A DNA stretch of 64,000 nucleotides from an uncultured Candidatus Binatia bacterium (lineage in GTDB: Bacteria; Desulfobacterota; Binatia; Bin18): assembly GCA_965214605.1 (NCBI GenBank), contig OZ243961.1:1103008-1167007 (forward strand), in the 5' to 3' direction. The position numbers and the translations under genes are program-made. Below are positions 4,322 through 48,585 of the stretch, one piece after another. The notes beneath the pieces are model-generated. The model was not told where the DNA came from. It made no database searches and saw nothing but the letters and a program-made list of their open reading frames with translations. The first letter of the stretch is position 1; every line of letters begins with the position of its first letter.

Positions 4322-5016
4322 GCAGGTTCACTGCGGACCAACGTCAACGTCTGCTAGAGACTGTCCAATCCTGGCTTGACGAACTCGATCAGGCAGAGCC
4401 GGCCCCGTCGGGTCTTTCCCCTGACATCATGGCTTCACCTGAGCCAGTTCCCGATCTGTTTTCTGTACTTGGGCAGCTGAGCGCGCTGACTCGTGAGACC
4501 CAGCTGCAAGGCCGGGCCACCAACCGTCTGCACACCGAACTTGGTCAGACCCTAGACGGGCTGGCCGAGCAAGTTGCCCAAAGCGAGACATCCACCTCTG
4601 GCCAAGCCTTAGTCCGCCAACTGAGCCAGGCACGGCGCGAGACGCGCACCGAACTCGTATCCGAGCTGCTTGAGGTCCGCGACCACCTGAGCCGTAATCT
4701 GATCGAGGCCGAGCGGCGGCTCACCAACTTGAGCGGCCTACGTGCCCGTCTTGGCCAACGTCCGGTGCTCGAAGCCCTCGTCAAAGGCACGCATCTGGCC
4801 CAGGAGCGGCTCGACGATCTGCTGCGGCGGCTGGATGTGTACGAGATTGCATGTCTTAACGCGGCATTCGATCCAAATCTGATGCGAGCAACCGCAGTCA
4901 GTCACACCACCACTGCAGTTCCAGGCACGGTAATCGCAGTTATCCGTCCCGGCTACACCTGTAACGGCCAGGTCATACGTTTTGCCGAAGTAAAGGTGGC
5001 CAAGAACAAGGAATGA
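4318..5016 (+). CDS. GrpE-like nucleotide exchange factor
   Basis: C-terminus AFDPNLMRATAV...PGTVIAVIRPGYTCNGQVIRFAEVKVA matches the GrpE beta-domain signature (FDP..H.A, GY...g..lR.A.V.V). The GTG start overlaps the J-gene stop as GTGA. Confidence 0.7.
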   Translation: MSRFTADQRQRLLETVQSWLDELDQAEPAPSGLSPDIMASPEPVPDLFSVLGQLSALTRETQLQGRATNRLHTELGQTLDGLAEQVAQSETSTSGQALVRQLSQARRETRTELVSELLEVRDHLSRNLIEAERRLTNLSGLRARLGQRPVLEALVKGTHLAQERLDDLLRRLDVYEIACLNAAFDPNLMRATAVSHTTTAVPGTVIAVIRPGYTCNGQVIRFAEVKVAKNKE

Positions 5017-5048
5017 GAAACGGCGGAGAAAGACGCTGACCAACGACC

Positions 5049-6917
5049 ATGACACATGACACTATCCTTGGCATTGACCTGGGCACCACCACCTCCGAGG
5101 TTGCGGCCATCGTCGGTGGCGAAGTCCAGGTGTTGGCCGTTGACGGCGAGCGGACGATGCCTTCGGTCGTCGGCCTCACTCCAGACAACCGTATCCTGGT
5201 TGGCACCCCGGCTCGGAATCAATACCCCTTGTATCCAACCCGCACGGTGAAGTCGATCAAACGCCTGATGGGCTCCTCTCAACAGGTCGTGCTGGGCCGG
5301 CACAGCTATTCCCCACCAGAAATCTCAGCCCTGATCCTACGCAGACTGAAAACACGCGCTGAGACTGTCCTGGGCCGCTCACTCCCCCGAGCGGTTATCA
5401 CCGTGCCGGCCTATTTCTCCGACGCCCAACGCCAAGCCACCCGAGACGCCGGCCACATCGCCGGCCTGGAGGTCGTCCGTATTCTCAATGAACCGACCGC
5501 CGCAGCCCTGGCCTATGGCGCCGACCGGCGGGGAGAGCGCACAGTCCTGATTTATGACCTGGGCGGAGGGACGTTCGATGTGTCCCTGGTCCAGGTCCGG
5601 GACGAGATTACCGAGGTCATCGCCAGTCACGGCAACAACCACCTGGGCGGTGATGATTTCGACCAGCGGTTGTTGGACTGGGTCCATGACCAGTTTGTCC
5701 AGTCGGGCGGCCCAGACATTCGAACCGATCCCATAGCTATGAGCCGTCTATTATGTGCGGTTGAGGAGGCCAAAAAGCGCCTGAGCTTTGAGCCCTACAC
5801 CCGTATTCGGGAAGAGCATTTGGCCGAACAAAATGGGGTCCCAGTCCACCTTGATCTGGAAATATCTCGGGCGGACTATGAACTGTTGATCCAGCATCTG
5901 GTGGAAACCACCCTGGACAGCGTGCATCAAGCACTGAACGACGCAGGGAAGCGGCCGGACCAGATTGACGAGGTGCTGCTGGTCGGTGGCGCGAGTCGTA
6001 CGCCGCTGGTATCCCAGCTTCTTGAAGACAAGACCGGCTTAGTCCCCCACCAAGACCTCCAGCCCGAGCTGTGTGTCGCCTTTGGGGCCGGGGTGTTAGC
6101 CGCCCGCCAGGCGGGCCACAATATTGATCGGGTTTTGGTCGATATCTCGCCCTACTCTTTTGGTCCGTCGCACCTTGGTTTTCTGAACGGTAGACCGTAT
6201 GAACACTGTTACCACCCGATTATTCGGCGCAACACGCCCCTGCCAGTCAGCCGCACCGACTCCTACCATACGCTGGTTGACGGGCAAGCCGACTGGCAGG
6301 TATCCGTCTATCAGGGCGACGATCCAGACGCCTTAAACAACATTTTGGTTGGACGCTTCTGCGTGGAAGGACTCTCCCACGTGCCGGCCGGCAATGAGAT
6401 GCTGTGCCGTATGGAACTCGATCTGGATGGAATTCTCAAAGTCACGGCTATTGAGAAGCGCACCGGTTTGGCCCGGCACATTACGATTGAGGGAGCTACT
6501 ACTGCCATGTCAGCCGAGGATCTGGCCCAAGCCCGTCAGCGTACGCACGACTTATTGGCCCAGGACTGCACAGACACGGCCGAAGCGTTTGAGCAGGAGG
6601 AGATACATTCCGGCCGGACCGAACTGACGACATACGAGAACGCTGATGGCCACCAGAGCCGGATGAAACCAGCGTTGACGTTTGTGGAAACCACCCAGGA
6701 CCGCGAAAGCCAAGAGCTGCGCCAACACGTGTTTGCCGCCGGCCGCCTGTTAGAGCGAAGCCGTCGCCTGCTGAAAAAAATGACGCCTGAAGACCAACAA
6801 GAGGCGCTCGAGCTGCACCAACAAATCGAGGAGGCGCTGCGGATACAGAATTGGGACTATCTCCACACGGCAATTACCGAGCTGACCGATCTGCTGTTTT
6901 ATGTCGAAGAAGCCTAG
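5049..6917 (+). CDS. Hsp70-family ATPase (DnaK paralog)
   Basis: GIDLGTTTSEVA, DLGGGTFDVS and VLLVGGASRTPLV motifs plus a substrate-binding beta-domain (VYQGDD...ILKVTAIEKRTG). The C-terminal ~130 aa are unlike the DnaK lid. Confidence 0.9.
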   Translation: MTHDTILGIDLGTTTSEVAAIVGGEVQVLAVDGERTMPSVVGLTPDNRILVGTPARNQYPLYPTRTVKSIKRLMGSSQQVVLGRHSYSPPEISALILRRLKTRAETVLGRSLPRAVITVPAYFSDAQRQATRDAGHIAGLEVVRILNEPTAAALAYGADRRGERTVLIYDLGGGTFDVSLVQVRDEITEVIASHGNNHLGGDDFDQRLLDWVHDQFVQSGGPDIRTDPIAMSRLLCAVEEAKKRLSFEPYTRIREEHLAEQNGVPVHLDLEISRADYELLIQHLVETTLDSVHQALNDAGKRPDQIDEVLLVGGASRTPLVSQLLEDKTGLVPHQDLQPELCVAFGAGVLAARQAGHNIDRVLVDISPYSFGPSHLGFLNGRPYEHCYHPIIRRNTPLPVSRTDSYHTLVDGQADWQVSVYQGDDPDALNNILVGRFCVEGLSHVPAGNEMLCRMELDLDGILKVTAIEKRTGLARHITIEGATTAMSAEDLAQARQRTHDLLAQDCTDTAEAFEQEEIHSGRTELTTYENADGHQSRMKPALTFVETTQDRESQELRQHVFAAGRLLERSRRLLKKMTPEDQQEALELHQQIEEALRIQNWDYLHTAITELTDLLFYVEEA

Positions 6918-6935
6918 CCACGGAGACTCTCCAGC

Positions 6936-7304
6936 GTGTCTGACAGCACTCCTTCTTCCTCCGGCACTCCTCGTTCATCACTGCAAGAGGCACATTGTCC
7001 AACCTGCCGGGCAGCTTGGCGTGGGGCGGCTGTCTGCGCCCGATGTGGGACCGACCTAGACCCGCTCATGCGTCTGGCAACAAAAGCCTGGCAGCTACGT
7101 GAGCGGTCCCGTCAAGCCCTAGGTGCAGAGGACCGCGCTGCCGAAGCCCTGGCCTGGGCCGAGGTTGCCTGTCAGCTCCAGGCAACGACACGCGGCCTGC
7201 GCTTACTAGCCTTGGCCTTGCTTGCCAACGGTGCCGTGGCAGAGGCAGTGGCGATGATTGAGCAAATCTCCAAGGGGGAGGAGGCTCGCTGTACCCGCGT
7301 ATGA
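6936..7304 (+). CDS. hypothetical protein with N-terminal zinc-ribbon (CPTC...CARC)
   Basis: GTG start 18 nt after the Hsp70 stop. CPTCRAAWRGAAVCARCGTDL four-Cys motif followed by a helical Ala/Leu-rich tail. Confidence 0.5.
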   Translation: MSDSTPSSSGTPRSSLQEAHCPTCRAAWRGAAVCARCGTDLDPLMRLATKAWQLRERSRQALGAEDRAAEALAWAEVACQLQATTRGLRLLALALLANGAVAEAVAMIEQISKGEEARCTRV

Positions 7305-7958
7305 CACGTCGGCGACATGCCCACGCCTGTCTGCCGGAGACAGGATAAACATCCAGCGCGCTTGCCTGTCTTGGAATGATATCTGCGTTCGCGCCGCCGT
7401 ATTTGCCAACGAGGGCCAGACGCAGAGCTTCTCTAACGCCCCCTTCCATGTCTGCAGCGTCCAGTGCCGCTCGGCGGGCCCACTACGGGACACGTGTCAC
7501 CAAGCTCGACAACAACCGCGGCGATACCGCCTGTGCCTCGTGCTGACGCAGACGTTTTACCACTCTGGCGAGTCCGATTTGGCAGTCCTTGAACCTGCAG
7601 GAGCGCGGTCTGCAGAGTGGAGGGCTGGTATGCGCACGCGCCTTGACGTTGAAGTCATTGAGGTCGCGACGGCCCCAGATGCCCCAGGCCGCGAAGATCA
7701 AGCTGAGGGGCTCATTCGATAGCGGTCTCTGCCTAGTCGTGTGCCGAGAAGAGGGGTCGACATGCGTGACGAACACGGGAGCTCTGCAAACGTCCGGCGT
7801 TGAGACGCGTTTCGGACTCAGCCTCATGGTGGATTGGTCACAGCCGGCGTCCTAATGAGGCGACGGGCCGTATCAGTCGCGCGCTGGACGCAGATTTCGA
7901 ACCCGCTGTCCATCAAGACCGGGCTTAACTGCGTCTTGGACGAGATGGGCAAACAGCC

Positions 7959-9345: not shown

Positions 9346-10499
9346 ATGGCGGATCAGCTACAACATGATTTGCTGCCACGGGCGAGCCACGATGAGCTCG
9401 CACGACAAAACTTTGTGCAAAGTCTGAAATTACACCTGGCAACAAAAATCGCCCCGGGCAATGAGCTTGTTTATGAAAAGCGGGCCAAACCCCGCTTTCA
9501 ACAACAGACAGGACGTCCGCCCAAAGACCGCCACGAAGTTCGCCGGAGCATGCGAGACGAGCCGTATTATCAGGCCTGGGGCTCACTGCAACGGACCAGT
9601 CAGGAGATGATGTGGGAGGCGGTCGACTCAAGCGTTGCGCGCCAGCTGCCTGAGCTTGTTGTGCGTGCCAGTCACAACGCCAAGCCCCTGGGCTCCTTAC
9701 GTCTCGATCCGGATCTTGCCATCCCAACCTATCACACGGCAGTCGATATTCACTGCCAACCCGGCGGCTATCATACTGAGTGCGGTCCGCAGGATGATGT
9801 GGCGGCTGGAGCGCTCTACGATCGCGCCGTCCATATCTACGCCATGAGCCGTCTGGGGACATTGAATGACGAGATGGGACAGTCGGTCGTGGTGTATTTG
9901 CAGCACCGCTATCCGGATTGCCGACCCACCCGAATCCTTGACATGGGCTGCACGGTTGGCCACAGCACGCTCCCCTATGTCGATGCCTATCCAGCGGCCC
10001 AGGTTTTTGCCATTGACGTGGGCGCGCCGGTGCTCCGCTACGCTCATGCCCGGGCTGAAGCGCTGGGCAAATGTGTTCATTTTTCGCAGCAAAACGCTGA
10101 ACGGACCACGTTTGCCGAAGCATCGTTTGACCTCATTGTGTCGCATATTTTGCTACACGAAACGTCGAGCAAGGCGCTCCGTAACATCGTTCGAGAAAGC
10201 TATAGGCTGCTCACTCCGGGCGGTCTGATGATCCACCAGGAGGTCTCCCAGTATCACGGCTTAGACCCCTACCAAGCCTTCATCCTTGATTGGGACACGT
10301 ACAACAATAACGACCGTTCTGGGGGACTCTGCGTGACACAGATCTGACCGCGATTGCTGTTGAAGCCGGCTTTGCCAAAGAGCAGGTCGTTGAGACGATG
10401 ATTCCGAGCGCCTTCCAGGTCAAAGGGCGCGCCCGACGTCTCCAGGCCGGCGACTTTGGCGGCAGCGGACAATGGTTCATCTTTGCTGCTACCAAATAG
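9346..10499 (+). pseudogene. class I SAM-dependent methyltransferase interrupted by a 1-nt frameshift near 10312
   Basis: ILDMGCTVGHS (motif I) and LLTPGGLMIHQE. The reading frame ends ...WDTYNNNDRSGGLCVTQI* at 10347. A shifted frame from 10314 reads PFWGTLRDTDLTAIAVEAGFAKEQVVETMIPSAF...FIFAATK* up to TAG 10497-10499. Confidence 0.7.
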
Positions 10500-10523: not shown

Positions 10524-10856
10524 ATGACACGGACAGCCAAGGGCCAGCGTCCAGCCTTTTTTGACGACCCGCAGATTGACAAGCTGTTAGCGATAATCAT
10601 GGCTCTGGCCGGAGAAGTGAGCGTACTGCGGGAGCGGCTCGATACGGTCGAAAGACTGCTCGAGGCCGAAGGCCTCGTATCTCGTCGCAATATTGAAACC
10701 TACCGAGCGGACGCCGCCGCGGCTGTGGAACGAGAACGCTGGCGGGGAGAATATCTGGAGCGGATTCTGCGGGTTCTCCACCAAGAGCGGGAGACGATAG
10801 CAGACAGCAAAACGCTCCCATCCCACGAACGGGCGGTTCGCACCGGAACTTTGTAA
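10524..10856 (+). CDS. hypothetical small protein (coiled-coil-like)
   Basis: 110-codon ORF starting at an ATG, with charged heptad-like sequence. No recognised domain. Confidence 0.5.
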   Translation: MTRTAKGQRPAFFDDPQIDKLLAIIMALAGEVSVLRERLDTVERLLEAEGLVSRRNIETYRADAAAAVERERWRGEYLERILRVLHQERETIADSKTLPSHERAVRTGTL

Positions 10857-11518
10857 GAGCCAAGAGCGCAGTTTTGGCCTTTAACTTTCAGGATTTTCCC
10901 AATGTCTTTGATTCTCGGTGTTGACCTTGTCGGCACGTCGGCACATACACAAAGGCCATTTTTCGGCATCTCGCCCATCCTGACAGAAGGATGTCATCGA
11001 CCGACATCAGCATCCAGAATCGAGGTAATGCGCTATTTTTCCTTGATTTTCGAATAGCGACGAGGCGTGCATTGTCGTCTCCGATGCGCTTCAACGCGCC
11101 TGAGTTTCAGTCCGGTCGCTTGCGGTATGCTACGGTTCCATCCCCACCTGAAACAGGAACATTTACAGTTGACCAGGCACGGCGTCAGGCGGCGCTCGCC
11201 ATCGCCCGCATCAAGTACGTCGCGGAGCACCTGCCCAACGTCGGGGTAACCTTCGACAAGTTTCCTGTCGTCGCCCACGCATCGGGGCGCTCGACAAAAC
11301 ACAGCGCATCGGGCAGCGCCTCAACCCGAACTCAAGGACATGCGGTGGACCCTGCTGGGGATCCCGGAAGCCTCGGTTCCGAACACAGTATTGCCTTCTG
11401 CAACCTTATCGACTATAGTAGCCGGCGACCCAGCGAACCTACGTTACCAACCCGCCATTCTTCGGGCAGCCAAGTTTCTGTGGCGGCAAGAATATCGTCG
11501 AGCGAGGGCGGCACACCC

Positions 11519-12067
11519 ATGCGAATACGCCACTACTCCATAACGAAACGCCTCGTCTTCGTTGGGCCGTTTCTGTATGTGCTCGTGCTGGCGACGGCAT
11601 CCCTCACGGGGCGGGGAGAAATCTACCCCTTCTTTGCCTGGGACTTGTTCGCGGGGGTGCCGGCGGGGTGGGTCATCCAGACGCCCGCCGTGGTGGCGCA
11701 TCCGATGGACGACTCCCGAAATTTAGGGGGGGGGGGGGGACGCTGGGTCATTCCGTCCCCCGACCCCCGGCATTTGAAGGTGCTGCGCGAGGTCCTGCAC
11801 GCGTGTGAGCGCCGCGCGGCCCCCGCGTGCCGGTCCGCCGTGGCCCGCCTGCTGCTCCCCCTCGTCGTTGACGGCGTGGGGAGCGGCGCCGTGGAGTTCA
11901 GTCTCGTCTGGGCGGCCGTCGATCTGCGCGCCCTCCGGGAGGACATCTGGGCGCTCGCCGCCGGCCGCACGCAGCGCATGGACTATGCCCGGGTCGCTAC
12001 GGTGCTCTCGCGGTGGCGCGCGGCCGCGGCCGGCGGCCTGCACCGGGTTGATGGGGGCACCCCGTGA
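11519..12067 (+). CDS. hypothetical membrane-anchored protein containing a G14-encoded Gly run
   Basis: ATG 11519. MRIRHYSITKRLVFVGPFLYVLVLATASL is a TM anchor, followed by EIYPFFAWDLF. The stop overlaps the next start as GTGA. The tracked 358-aa ORF (10991..) probably over-extends upstream. Confidence 0.5.
   Translation: MRIRHYSITKRLVFVGPFLYVLVLATASLTGRGEIYPFFAWDLFAGVPAGWVIQTPAVVAHPMDDSRNLGGGGGRWVIPSPDPRHLKVLREVLHACERRAAPACRSAVARLLLPLVVDGVGSGAVEFSLVWAAVDLRALREDIWALAAGRTQRMDYARVATVLSRWRAAAAGGLHRVDGGTP
11726..11739. repeat. homopolymeric G14 tract inside a coding sequence
   Basis: Counted directly: ...aatttag then 14 G then acgctgg. It encodes GGGGG in the current frame. Confidence 0.95.
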
Positions 12068-13416
12068 ACGCTGCGCGGCTGCAGGGCCGGCTCCGCAAGA
12101 CCCTCCTCCACGTGGAGACGGGGGAGCGGCGGCGCGCGGCCGACTTCTCGCGGGCCGCGCGCCACATCGCCGTGCTGGTCCGGTTCTATTACATCTTCGT
12201 CGCGTACCTCCTCTTCGGCCGGTTCAAGGTTGCGAATTTGCTCCACGGCATTCCCCCGCCCGCGCCGTTGTGGCCCCTGGACCTGATGGCGACAGTCGCG
12301 GGCTCCGCGTGGCTCGCGTGGGGCGAGCTCCTCACGGCGGCGGGCGTGGGGGTGGCGCTGCTGGCGGCGCTGTGTCCGGGCGTGCTGCTCTTCCGGCTTG
12401 GGGTCTTCGTCTATCTCTTCATCGGCATCGCGCTGGCCAACTCCTATGGCGCCATCAGCCATGGGCGCCATCTCTTCCTCTATGTCTCCTTCGGGTTGTT
12501 GTGGCTGCCGGCGGCCATCGGCCGCCCGGAGCGCATGGCGCGCCGGGAGGCGATGGCGTGCAACGCGGCCTTCTGGCTGACACAGGCACTGCTGCTGCTG
12601 CCCTACAGCCTCAGCGGCTTCTGGACACTCTGGCGCAGCAACCTCCAGTTGGTGTCCCTCGACTCCTTCGTCCGGCTGGTCCTCGCCGGCCTGCTCGAAC
12701 AGGCCGGCGGGCCCCTCCCGCCGCTGGTCCCGTGGCTCGCCCAGTACCCCTCGGTCGGCCAGGGCTTGTATCTGGCGTTTTGCTATGTGGAAGGGCTGCT
12801 GCTCGTCAGTCTGTTCCGCCCCCACTTGCAGCGAGGGTTCGGCCTGGTCGTCATCGGGTTCCATCTCGGGACGCGGTGGCTGCTCGGCTTTGCCGCCGCT
12901 CCCTACCTCGTGCTCTGGTTCCTCTTCCTGGTGGCTTCGCCGTTCGCCGCGGCCCGGTTCTCCCCGGTCGCCACGGCGCGCTCGCTGCCGCTCCTCGGCC
13001 TCCCCTTCCGCGCGTGGGCGCGCTGGAGGCGCCCGGAGAAAGGGGCGGAGAAGGCGTGGCTGGTGTATGATGGCGAGTGCCCGTTCTGTTCGCGTTACTC
13101 ACGCATGGTCGATGTGAGAGATGCCATCGGCGAACTCATACTCGTGAACGCCCGCGATGGGGGGCCGATCGTGGACGAGATCAAGGCCCTGCCTTGGGAT
13201 CTCAACAGGGGCATGGTACTGAAACTGAACGGACGATACCGGTTTGGCGACGAGGCCCTGCACACCTTGGCGCTCCTGTCGCGGAAGAATGGCGCATTCG
13301 GCATCCTGAACCGTCTCGTGCTCGGTTCGCGCGCGGTCGCATGGTTCGCATACCCGCTGTTGAAGCTCTGCAGGAGGCTGGCGCTGATGGCGAAAAGGGT
13401 TCCGGTCCTGAAGTAG
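12064..13416 (+). CDS. fusion protein: polytopic membrane domain (possibly HTTM-like, unverified) + C-terminal DCC1-like thiol-disulfide oxidoreductase (DUF393)
   Basis: About 330 aa with multiple hydrophobic spans. Then WLVYDGECPFCSRYSRMVD carries the DxxCxxC motif that defines the DCC family, and the rest of the C-terminal domain is DCC-like. Confidence 0.75.
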   Translation: MNAARLQGRLRKTLLHVETGERRRAADFSRAARHIAVLVRFYYIFVAYLLFGRFKVANLLHGIPPPAPLWPLDLMATVAGSAWLAWGELLTAAGVGVALLAALCPGVLLFRLGVFVYLFIGIALANSYGAISHGRHLFLYVSFGLLWLPAAIGRPERMARREAMACNAAFWLTQALLLLPYSLSGFWTLWRSNLQLVSLDSFVRLVLAGLLEQAGGPLPPLVPWLAQYPSVGQGLYLAFCYVEGLLLVSLFRPHLQRGFGLVVIGFHLGTRWLLGFAAAPYLVLWFLFLVASPFAAARFSPVATARSLPLLGLPFRAWARWRRPEKGAEKAWLVYDGECPFCSRYSRMVDVRDAIGELILVNARDGGPIVDEIKALPWDLNRGMVLKLNGRYRFGDEALHTLALLSRKNGAFGILNRLVLGSRAVAWFAYPLLKLCRRLALMAKRVPVLK

Positions 13417-14110
13417 GAAACTCTTCGTAACGTTCACCTTCGCGACGGGGATCACCGACGCTACTGCTTGATGACGAAACCTTCATCAAGCGGGGAGATG
13501 CAGCGAATGCTGGCGGAGGGCATTGCGTCCGAGGACCGGCGGATTGTCGATCTGACGGTGCTGGATCTAAACGTTCAGTCGCCGCAGCACGGTCCCGACC
13601 TTCGGTGGGTGCAGGCTCACCCGTGGAGCTCAACCCGCCCCATCGCCGAGGTCCGTGCCCTACAGCGAGTATTGATTTCATGTCACGCCCAGGTCCGATT
13701 TCGCCCGGAGGACGTTTGGGAATAACCTCGGGGCGGAATGAATGGTTGGTGAAAGCCATGGAGAATTATATTGAGATTGCGCCTTAGGTTCACGGTCGGT
13801 CCCCGTTGATGGCCGTGGGCCGTCACAAGCGGGAAGAGGCGCAGGAATGGTTGGCGGCGTGTTTCCGGTGTCCGGCGTATTCGCTAGGCTGGCGTCGGTC
13901 GGGGCGGGTCTGCAACCGTTCCGGATGATCGATGGGAGGGGGCAAAAGGACCTGACGCCGCCCTCAACCGGCGTCAAGCCGGTGAAAGAATCGTCATCGA
14001 GAACCGCCGTGCGCTCGACGACAACGCATGGCGGCGAGCGTTACCAGCCTCTTGCGGGACCTCAATTCGATTGTGTATGATGACACCGACACGGTCACCC
14101 GTACGGCCCG

Positions 14111-48511: not shown

Positions 48512-48585
48512 TAGCGACGGGCAGAATCGAACTGCCGACCTAGGGATTATGAGACCCTCGCTCTAGCCTACTGAGCTACGTCGCC
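48512..48585 (-). tRNA. tRNA-Met (anticodon CAT); elongator most likely, Ile2/initiator not formally excluded
   Basis: Manual cloverleaf of GGCGACG-TA-GCTC-AGTAGGCTA-GAGC-G-AGGGT-CTCATAA-TCCCT-AGGTC-GGCAG-TTCGATT-CTGCC-CGTCGCT-A. 7-bp acceptor stem (G1-U72 wobble) and GGCAG/CTGCC T-stem. No encoded CCA. Confidence 0.9.

Follow-up and report, generated by a model that had tools for sequence, protein, structure and literature searches.

The window analysed here, 64,000 nucleotides from an uncultured Candidatus Binatia bacterium (contig OZ243961.1 of assembly GCA_965214605.1), holds at positions 11519-13416 what is probably a horizontally acquired two-gene cassette, encoding a split protein that would belong to the HTTM / vitamin-K-dependent carboxylase (GGCX) superfamily and has diverged from it strongly. 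The downstream gene, hereafter the fusion gene, encodes a polytopic membrane domain joined to a DCC1-like domain, and the upstream gene encodes a small membrane-anchored partner (Table 1). The original prediction dealt with the fusion protein, which it read as a membrane-embedded redox enzyme carrying its own thiol reductant domain. We find this reading reasonable but unproven. The two domains are indeed fused; as a description of the functional unit, the fusion fell short, since the upstream partner is conserved and the wider family mostly lacks the DCC domain.

The fusion open reading frame (ORF) is a real gene and not a chance ORF. It begins with GTG, and this start is supported by homologues that align with the protein from residue 1 onward. 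Database searches returned 99 homologues of the fusion protein at E<=1e-3, mostly of ~450 amino acids (aa), with a best E of 1e-208 for non-identical ones, and the membrane domain alone, used as a profile, matched 1076 representatives of 50%-identity clusters at E<=1e-3. The ratio of non-synonymous to synonymous substitution rates (dN/dS) is below 1 in every pairwise comparison of the family.

Topology and remote homology of the membrane domain

Hydropathy, the AlphaFold2 model and counts of lysine plus arginine (K/R) over 230 family members give the N-terminal part eight transmembrane (TM) helices with both termini inside, in keeping with the multi-span domain originally proposed. The model, built from a 63-sequence alignment, has a mean pLDDT of 89.7 and a pTM of 0.74. 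K/R-rich segments are the N-tail (mean K+R 4.8), loop 4 (3.0), loop 6 (2.0) and the C-tail (5.1), and loops 1, 3, 5 and 7 are K/R-poor or net-acidic across the 230 sequences. By the positive-inside rule, the residues that align with the GGCX active site are predicted to lie at the outer face and the CxxC at the cytoplasmic face; with both termini inside, the DCC domain as a whole is predicted to be cytoplasmic. By this prediction the CxxC does not simply point towards the active site of the membrane domain, being placed opposite the GGCX-type site. The impression of His and Trp in the loops was sound: W70, H133, H136 and H267 are conserved in or near loops.

Three observations place the membrane domain as a remote member of the HTTM/GGCX superfamily: a structural match, a profile-profile match and the register of the motifs. 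Foldseek retrieved GGCX (9bvo_A) with a probability of 0.99 and a TM-score of 0.38, normalised on the whole query, and a second GGCX entry (9wfc_A) with a probability of 0.90; in this comparison the TM core has the fold of the GGCX superfamily. All non-GGCX matches stayed at probabilities <=0.28 and TM-scores <=0.16. They include ABC-exporter and G-protein-coupled receptor structures, so that a transporter reading of the membrane domain, one of the two outcomes on which the original prediction was staked, was rejected; the other, lack of a DCC match, is not what we found either (see below).

For the profile comparison, a family profile of 230 sequences was aligned by hhalign with an HTTM profile of just six sequences, namely human GGCX (a sequence identical to PDB 13ib_A) and five bacterial HTTM proteins that tblastn had retrieved from plasmids. 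The local alignment reached 94.8% probability (E 5.6e-8) over 167 columns, spanning residues 118-297 of the window protein and 142-317 of GGCX, and the global mode gave 96.3%. Among the controls, the reversed template scored 0.1% and ten block shuffles 0.9-20.6%. A 19-sequence profile against the single GGCX sequence gave 0.14%, which is not significant, with the motif register unchanged, and tblastn of the membrane domain against plasmids gave no match.

The guess of an HTTM-like domain therefore holds at the level of the superfamily, and not as membership of the Pfam family. The Pfam HTTM model (PF05090) had no match at E<=10 in 63 family members, nor at E<=1 in 10 distant representatives; more broadly, no Pfam or NCBIfam model matched the membrane domain in the window protein, the 63 aligned relatives (E<=10) or 20 distant representatives. 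Models of the VKGC lumenal domain (PF22777) and of VKOR were likewise without a match in the window protein and the 63 members. With the same library, canonical bacterial HTTM proteins from plasmids matched PF05090 at 1e-73 to 1e-83 (248-280 bits), and PF22777 as well. We would thus regard the domain as a remote superfamily member outside the Pfam family definition. If so, more than 1000 sequence clusters with a GGCX-like core have been missed by domain libraries, and the superfamily is wider than currently drawn.

Motifs aligned with the GGCX active site

The motifs of the family are colinear with those of HTTM/GGCX, in the order NH, Y..G..K, R, FH and SP. The family consensus NSYGxINH133GxH136 is aligned to DKTSWNNH160 of GGCX, with H136 on H160 and a register that is ambiguous by ~3 residues towards H133. 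S127, G129 and H133 are conserved in 216-221 of the 230 sequences (H133 in 219) and H136 in 193, and the window protein has both His. Further on, Y181-x-L-x-G185-x-x-K188 is aligned with high posterior confidence to the GGCX segment that ends in K218; column 188 holds K in 225/230 sequences and R in three. The Thr found there (T188, codon ACA, 12625-12627) is unique to the window protein, which entered the 230-sequence alignment twice (window translation and P0001). R252 and P253 occur in 224/230 sequences, and R257 is aligned to GGCX R276; these residues belong to the FRPHLHR loop, which is K/R-rich and for that reason assigned to the cytoplasmic side. H267 is present in 227 of the 230, and S292-P293 is aligned to the SP that follows the last helix of GGCX.

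In GGCX itself, K218 is catalytic, as the K218A variant loses activity, and the pocket for Glu is formed by N159, H160 and Y395 (bioRxiv 10.1101/2025.02.09.637231). The Lys-to-Thr change cautions against annotating the window gene as an active enzyme.

The upstream partner

The partner gene was found within a mechanical ORF, 10991-12067, which is its upstream extension. The frame is open back to 10991, yet partner homologues begin at 11519, and the true start is Met177 of that ORF, the ATG at 11519, with a GAGGG 10 nucleotides (nt) upstream. A partner homologue lies immediately upstream of the membrane gene in 51/52 related loci, which span seven phyla. In an all-against-all ORF comparison of 49 loci, partner and membrane gene were the only genes conserved throughout; no third gene or substrate gene of >=90 aa was conserved beside the pair, shorter peptides not having been surveyed. 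Start/stop overlaps such as the GTGA between the two genes are a hallmark of translational coupling, and both the closest relative (locus L058) and the distant L062 share this overlap. The fusion protein alone is not the functional unit, given this conserved upstream partner.

The N-tail of the partner has a family mean of 3.4 K+R and 0.06 D+E, which puts its N-terminus inside. The motif that follows the helix has the family form E34-I-(F/Y)-P37-F38-F39-x-W41-x-L43-F44, in which E34, P37, F38, W41 and L43 are invariant in sets of 30 and 48 sequences. C96 and C104 are both invariant in the close subfamily and probably form an extracytoplasmic disulfide. Distant partners keep the TM helix and the motif (EIFPFYSWFLF in L062, EIYPIFSWDLF in L061), and the Cys pair is absent from these two. 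A single-sequence search with the partner found nothing, and an alignment query found 22 proteins, none with a Pfam domain; Pfam and NCBIfam had no match in the window partner and none in 30 partner sequences, on which the DUF5819 model was silent at E<=10. Together, the eight helices of the membrane domain and the single partner helix make nine, as in GGCX. The family could serve as a natural split GGCX for dissecting the role of the cap domain. A likeness by eye between EIFPFFxWxLF and the (Q/E)LxLP(W/Y)xxF after GGCX TM9 was dropped, as hhalign did not support it.

The DCC domain and its distribution

The assignment of the C-terminal ~120 aa to DCC/DUF393 was upheld. PF04134 (DCC1-like) matches residues 333-438 at E 2.3e-8, scoring 35.7 bits where the gathering cut-off is 27.8, covers profile positions 1-108 of 113 and was the only significant domain in a Pfam scan of the fusion protein; it is also matched by 46/63 aligned family members. 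The WLVYDGECPFC stretch is present as described, with D336, C339 and C342, and DxxCxxC is kept in 80/81 fused relatives. The modelled domain has a thioredoxin-like fold whose first helix carries the CxxC at its N-terminus. We predict a thiol-disulfide module, which may act as the protein's own thiol reductant.

How often the two domains are fused or adjacent, a survey that the original prediction had called for, depends on the distance covered. Of the close homologues whose membrane domain is nearly complete, 74/93 carry a fused DCC; of the loci from the genome scan, about two thirds are DCC-fused, and the unfused loci have no DCC within 5 kb. The norm among distant representatives is a standalone membrane protein of ~325-330 aa.

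Several other loci show different arrangements. In two Candidatus Poriferisodalis genomes (L029 and L030, ~4425-7363) the partner is followed in tandem by a standalone and then a DCC-fused membrane gene. L062 (2589-5251) encodes P0206, a protein of 718 aa with a C-terminal MGDG-synthase/GT28 domain in place of DCC (Pfam scores of 25.5 and 21.9 bits, at threshold), flanked by GT1 genes; its upstream partner of 169 aa overlaps the P0206 gene by 4 nt. On plasmid p1 of Paracoccus albus (L054:2473-4341), a canonical gene with HTTM and VKGC-lumenal domains adjoins, and diverges from, a standalone DUF393/DCC gene, so that the association of HTTM with DCC also exists in unfused form and the link is recurrent. 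This recurrence, fused here and adjacent in Paracoccus, leads to a testable hypothesis for DCC proteins, namely that they re-reduce a quinone cofactor. A Chondrinema litorale plasmid (L053:450-6774) has its canonical HTTM gene amid genes for imelysin, a di-haem oxidoreductase and a TonB-dependent receptor, a setting that looks iron-related.

Comparison with known systems

To our knowledge, bacterial HTTM proteins are almost unstudied, apart from a carboxylase that takes part in antibiotic biosynthesis, an orthologue with epoxidase activity alone, and SdpB. HTTM-DCC proteins with a single-pass partner have already been annotated and modelled elsewhere; the window cassette is a Pfam-invisible variant of this biochemically uncharacterised kind. 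The modelled example is the adjacent pair A0A1G6IAS5 / A0A1G6IBF2 of Melghirimyces thermohalophilus, for which AlphaFold3 gives a GGCX-like complex, in silico only (bioRxiv 10.64898/2026.08.19.745780, August 2026). Its partner consists of an N-terminal TM helix and DUF5819, and its membrane protein of 447 aa has HTTM at 52-289 and DCC1-like at 323-431. In the model, which is similar to GGCX as a whole, the helix of the partner corresponds to a TM helix of GGCX, DUF5819 sits at the site of the GGCX clamp domains, and menaquinol lies near Lys189, Trp195 and Phe273, with Leu59 and Phe60 of the partner contacting the pocket (same preprint).

The window pair shares with it the adjacent genes, a partner built from an N-terminal TM helix and a domain of ~150-155 aa, and a ~450-aa protein that is polytopic and then DCC; the architecture and position of a DUF5819 partner, adjoining the membrane gene, are thus found here as well. 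Lys ~189 beside the predicted quinol pocket of Melghirimyces is comparable to column 188 of our family, and the hydrophobic partner residues just past the TM helix that contact the pocket may correspond to the EIFPFFxWxLF motif. In contrast to the Melghirimyces proteins, which Pfam recognises (HTTM, DUF5819), neither window protein is recognised by these models. Trp195 (KxxxxxW) is without a counterpart in the window family, and the invariant Cys pair sets the window partner apart from the Melghirimyces partner, the partners having been compared by description only.

GGCX (PDB 9bum, 9bvo, 9l54; PF05090 and PF22777) and the window family have in common the colinear motifs (H160, Y211..G215..K218, FH287), a cytoplasmic N-terminus, active-site residues on the extracytoplasmic or lumenal side and, counting the partner helix, nine helices. 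Identity is ~10-15%, with no match by hidden Markov model (HMM). Unlike GGCX, the window system has its ninth helix and its lumenal-type domain on a separate polypeptide without detectable similarity, an extra cytoplasmic DCC domain, Thr for Lys218, and neither propeptide-binding nor Arch domains. By profile-profile comparison the canonical HTTM proteins of bacteria (for example Paracoccus albus WP_271073465 and Chondrinema litorale WP_284686687) belong to the same superfamily, but they are single polypeptides of 455-475 aa with a fused VKGC lumenal domain and have kept KLxxDW. MloH of malonomycin biosynthesis is a bacterial HTTM carboxylase that acts on a non-Glu substrate (as cited in 10.64898/2026.08.19.745780).

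The DCC/DUF393 family (PF04134; Arabidopsis DCC1, Bacillus subtilis YuxK) has, like the window domain, DxxCxxC at the beta1/alpha1 junction, a thioredoxin fold and a C-terminal helical extension. Most described members are small and soluble, whereas the window DCC is tethered to the cytoplasmic end of TM8. We know of no DCC protein with a known substrate. Bacterial VKOR homologues, in which a quinone-handling membrane domain is fused to a thioredoxin-fold CxxC domain, resemble the window protein in concept only. In these homologues the thioredoxin-like domain lies outside the cytoplasm and feeds electrons to the quinone pool, whereas the CxxC domain of the window protein is predicted to be cytoplasmic; moreover, there is no VKOR match and the membrane fold is unrelated.

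Probable horizontal transfer and the state of this copy

The cassette has a GC content of 68.5% (85-88% at third codon positions) against a window mean of 58.8% (standard deviation 2.2%) and ranks first in GC among 311 sliding segments of the window. Nucleotide similarity to the closest relative, L058, is confined to 11460-13460, with unrelated flanks. In 46 other loci the GC of the cassette minus that of its flanks ranges from -17 to +4 points. The GC discordance, together with similarity that ends at the cassette borders, points to repeated horizontal transfer across seven phyla. All 49 genome hits are metagenome-assembled genomes, of Actinomycetota (including Candidatus Poriferisodalis), Chloroflexota, Latescibacterota, Pseudomonadota, Verrucomicrobiota, Acidobacteriota and Spirochaetota. 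From taxon names and general knowledge we take them to be a sponge-symbiont community, an assumption that the literature did not confirm. The discordance in base composition, seen across seven phyla, suggests a trait specific to a niche, which would be of interest for symbiosis.

L058 shares 73% aa identity with the window protein and has kept the Lys. Between these two copies, dN/dS is 0.52 for the fusion gene, 0.68 for the partner and 0.65 for the membrane domain; the last is the highest of >130 family pairs (others 0.10-0.46), as a pairwise value that is not assignable to one lineage. In a third close copy, from the same metagenome sample (ERZ25070786; L059:3629-5336), the partner is truncated at its 5' end and at least two frameshifts interrupt the fusion gene, of which the gene caller reports just a 286-aa DCC fragment. 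This copy, which has Lys at column 188, is a pseudogene or else an artefact of assembly. The window copy retains all 15 residues that are invariant in the 63-sequence alignment, the CxxC, the partner motif and the Cys pair. Judging from T188 and from a constraint that seems relaxed in its lineage, it may be impaired or altered in its chemistry, and a single-base assembly error at the ACA codon is possible.

Proposed mechanism and alternative explanations

By analogy with GGCX, the fusion protein and its partner would form a nine-helix complex that binds membrane quinol. Oxygen-dependent oxidation of the quinol at the outer face might then drive the modification of a substrate, which the extracytoplasmic domain of the partner would hold, recognise or gate. 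The cytoplasmic CxxC could re-reduce the oxidised quinone (quinone or epoxide), the role that VKOR has for GGCX. As most family members are without DCC, the module would be accessory to this scheme.

Several observations weigh against this picture. The DCC domain occurs in only ~11/136 of the more distant cluster representatives, which implies that it is not essential to the core chemistry; therefore DCC is an accessory module of one clade. No membrane-domain residue tracks its presence, the differences being clade effects. Geometry is the weak point of the scheme: the CxxC sits across the membrane from the putative active site, and the electron path between them is hypothetical. The Pfam models for HTTM, VKGC_lumenal_dom, DUF5819 and VKOR are silent on family and window proteins, and the family HMM did not retrieve GGCX among PDB sequences. 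The partner has no detectable similarity to TM9 and the lumenal region of GGCX/HTTM (hhalign 0.16%), nor to any PDB fold. The catalytic Lys of GGCX (K218) has its equivalent in the family and not in the window protein, and the Trp after the Lys of canonical HTTM proteins (KLxxDW) is missing, with no Trp at +5/+6 in the family consensus. Finally, the use of a quinone, the action on a substrate and the activity itself are putative for every family member.

How far, then, can the superfamily reading be pushed? In its boldest form, the cassette would represent a large, Pfam-invisible branch of the vitamin-K-carboxylase superfamily, built from a membrane core and a disulfide-stapled extracytoplasmic cap. 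The DCC clade would have its own cytoplasmic thiol reductase in place of VKOR and run a self-contained quinone cycle, and the module would be traded horizontally among co-resident bacteria of at least seven phyla, apparently symbionts of sponges, with a protein or lipid outside the cell as its target; we hold this version to be unlikely. It is also doubtful, though a case deserving attention, that the window copy is a decaying or non-catalytic remnant of an otherwise enzymatic family, persisting only through recent acquisition. Thr at the Lys column in this protein alone among 230, the dN/dS of 0.65 against L058, the truncated partner and frameshifted fusion gene of L059 and the foreign composition of the cassette are all in line with decay. 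The pairwise dN/dS could stem from either lineage, however, and misassembly could account for the ACA codon as well as for the frameshifts of L059; the two window ORFs are intact and coupled by GTGA, and the invariant residues and motifs listed above have all been retained.

Alternatively, the system might act not on a protein but on a membrane lipid or a polyprenyl/glycolipid intermediate, with varying cytoplasmic modules at the C-terminus (DCC, glycosyltransferase) that supply or modify the lipid. We regard this as improbable. The glycosyltransferase domain of P0206 between GT1 genes would fit, as would a plant DUF393 protein listed among the proteins of plastoglobules, which are a prenyl-lipid compartment (bioRxiv 10.1101/2021.02.05.430006), and the lack of a conserved protein-substrate gene of >=90 aa in the 49 loci. 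P0206 is however a single fusion with Pfam scores at threshold, the conserved His/Lys constellation matches the protein-modifying site of GGCX, and the globular domain of the partner looks like a substrate-recognition or cap module. Very improbable, in our estimate, is a pair for peptide maturation or export like sdpA-sdpB of Bacillus subtilis, with DCC as an add-on. The sizes and roles of the Sdp proteins are the basis of this comparison: a small partner followed by an HTTM-like membrane gene, and standalone forms of ~325 aa, recall sdpA-sdpB, and the Cys pair of the partner suggests extracytoplasmic disulfide chemistry. Yet neither window protein matched an NCBIfam model at E<=1, in a library that we take to hold SdpA and SdpB models, and no SdpC-like third gene of >=90 aa is conserved beside the pair in the 49 loci, where shorter peptides were not surveyed; a membrane-anchored partner with an invariant boundary motif, moreover, suits a subunit better than a chaperone. 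A split, divergent member of the HTTM/GGCX superfamily is the reading that we consider probable for this cassette.

Feature coordinates and neighbouring genes

Table 1. Positions in the window of the features of the cassette and its upstream region
Feature	Position	Strand	Remarks
Terminator-like hairpin	10859-10878		3' of the preceding small ORF 10524-10856
Candidate promoter TTGCCT-17-TATAGT	11391..11419	+	~100 nt 5' of the partner gene; weak evidence
Partner gene, 182 aa	11519..12067	+	cytoplasmic N-tail, one TM helix, ~150-aa extracytoplasmic alpha/beta domain (predicted)
Partner TM helix, aa ~12-30	11552..11608	+	AlphaFold2 helix 3-30; K/R-rich tail before the helix
Partner motif E34-I-Y-P37-F38-F39-A-W41-D-L43-F44	11618..11650	+	outer membrane boundary, immediately after the TM helix
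Partner Cys pair C96...C104	11804..11830	+	turn between AlphaFold2 helices 83-97 and 101-120
GTGA overlap	12064..12067	+	partner stop TGA 12065-12067, fusion-gene start GTG 12064-12066
Fusion gene, 450 aa	12064..13416	+	divergent HTTM-like membrane domain and DCC1-like domain
Membrane domain, aa 1-325	12064..13038	+	eight TM helices, N-in/C-in; remote HTTM/GGCX superfamily (predicted)
Outer-face loop N126-S-Y-G-A-I-S-H133-G-R-H136	12439..12471	+	family consensus NSYGxINHGxH; aligns with GGCX D153-K-T-S-W-N-N-H160
Y181-S-L-S-G185-F-W-T188	12604..12627	+	outer end of TM5; aligns with GGCX Y211-F-I-A-G215-V-K-K218
F251-R-P-H-L-Q-R257 (family FRPHLHR)	12814..12834	+	cytoplasmic face, between TM6 and TM7
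F266-H267	12859..12864	+	inside TM7; aligned to GGCX F286-H287 and to FH in bacterial HTTM proteins
DCC1-like thioredoxin-fold domain, aa 333-438	13060..13377	+	predicted cytoplasmic
D336-G-E-C339-P-F-C342 (DxxCxxC)	13069..13089	+	beta1/alpha1 junction; AlphaFold2 strand 330-335, helix 340-348

The terminator-like hairpin after the preceding small ORF fits the cassette as a transcription unit of its own. Promoter-type sites near the cassette are not enriched, with one seen against 0.6 expected in shuffles. Two further ORFs, 11805-13070 (plus strand, 421 aa) and 11983-12864 (minus strand, 293 aa), run across the fusion gene in different frames and are shadow ORFs of this 68.5%-GC gene; an antisense ORF cluster recurs in 44 loci because the fusion gene itself is conserved.

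Between the small ORF and the partner gene lies a GC-rich gap of ~660 nt (10857-11518), in which no Rfam family matched at the gathering threshold. Upstream of the cassette and on the same strand, 9346-10347 encodes a class I S-adenosylmethionine-dependent methyltransferase, which is not conserved beside the cassette in other loci; it is weakly similar to the UbiE/MenG, RquA and MpqE quinone methyltransferase models, all far below their cut-offs. In the whole 64-kb window, one tRNA on the minus strand, at 48512-48585, is the sole match to Rfam that passes the gathering threshold.

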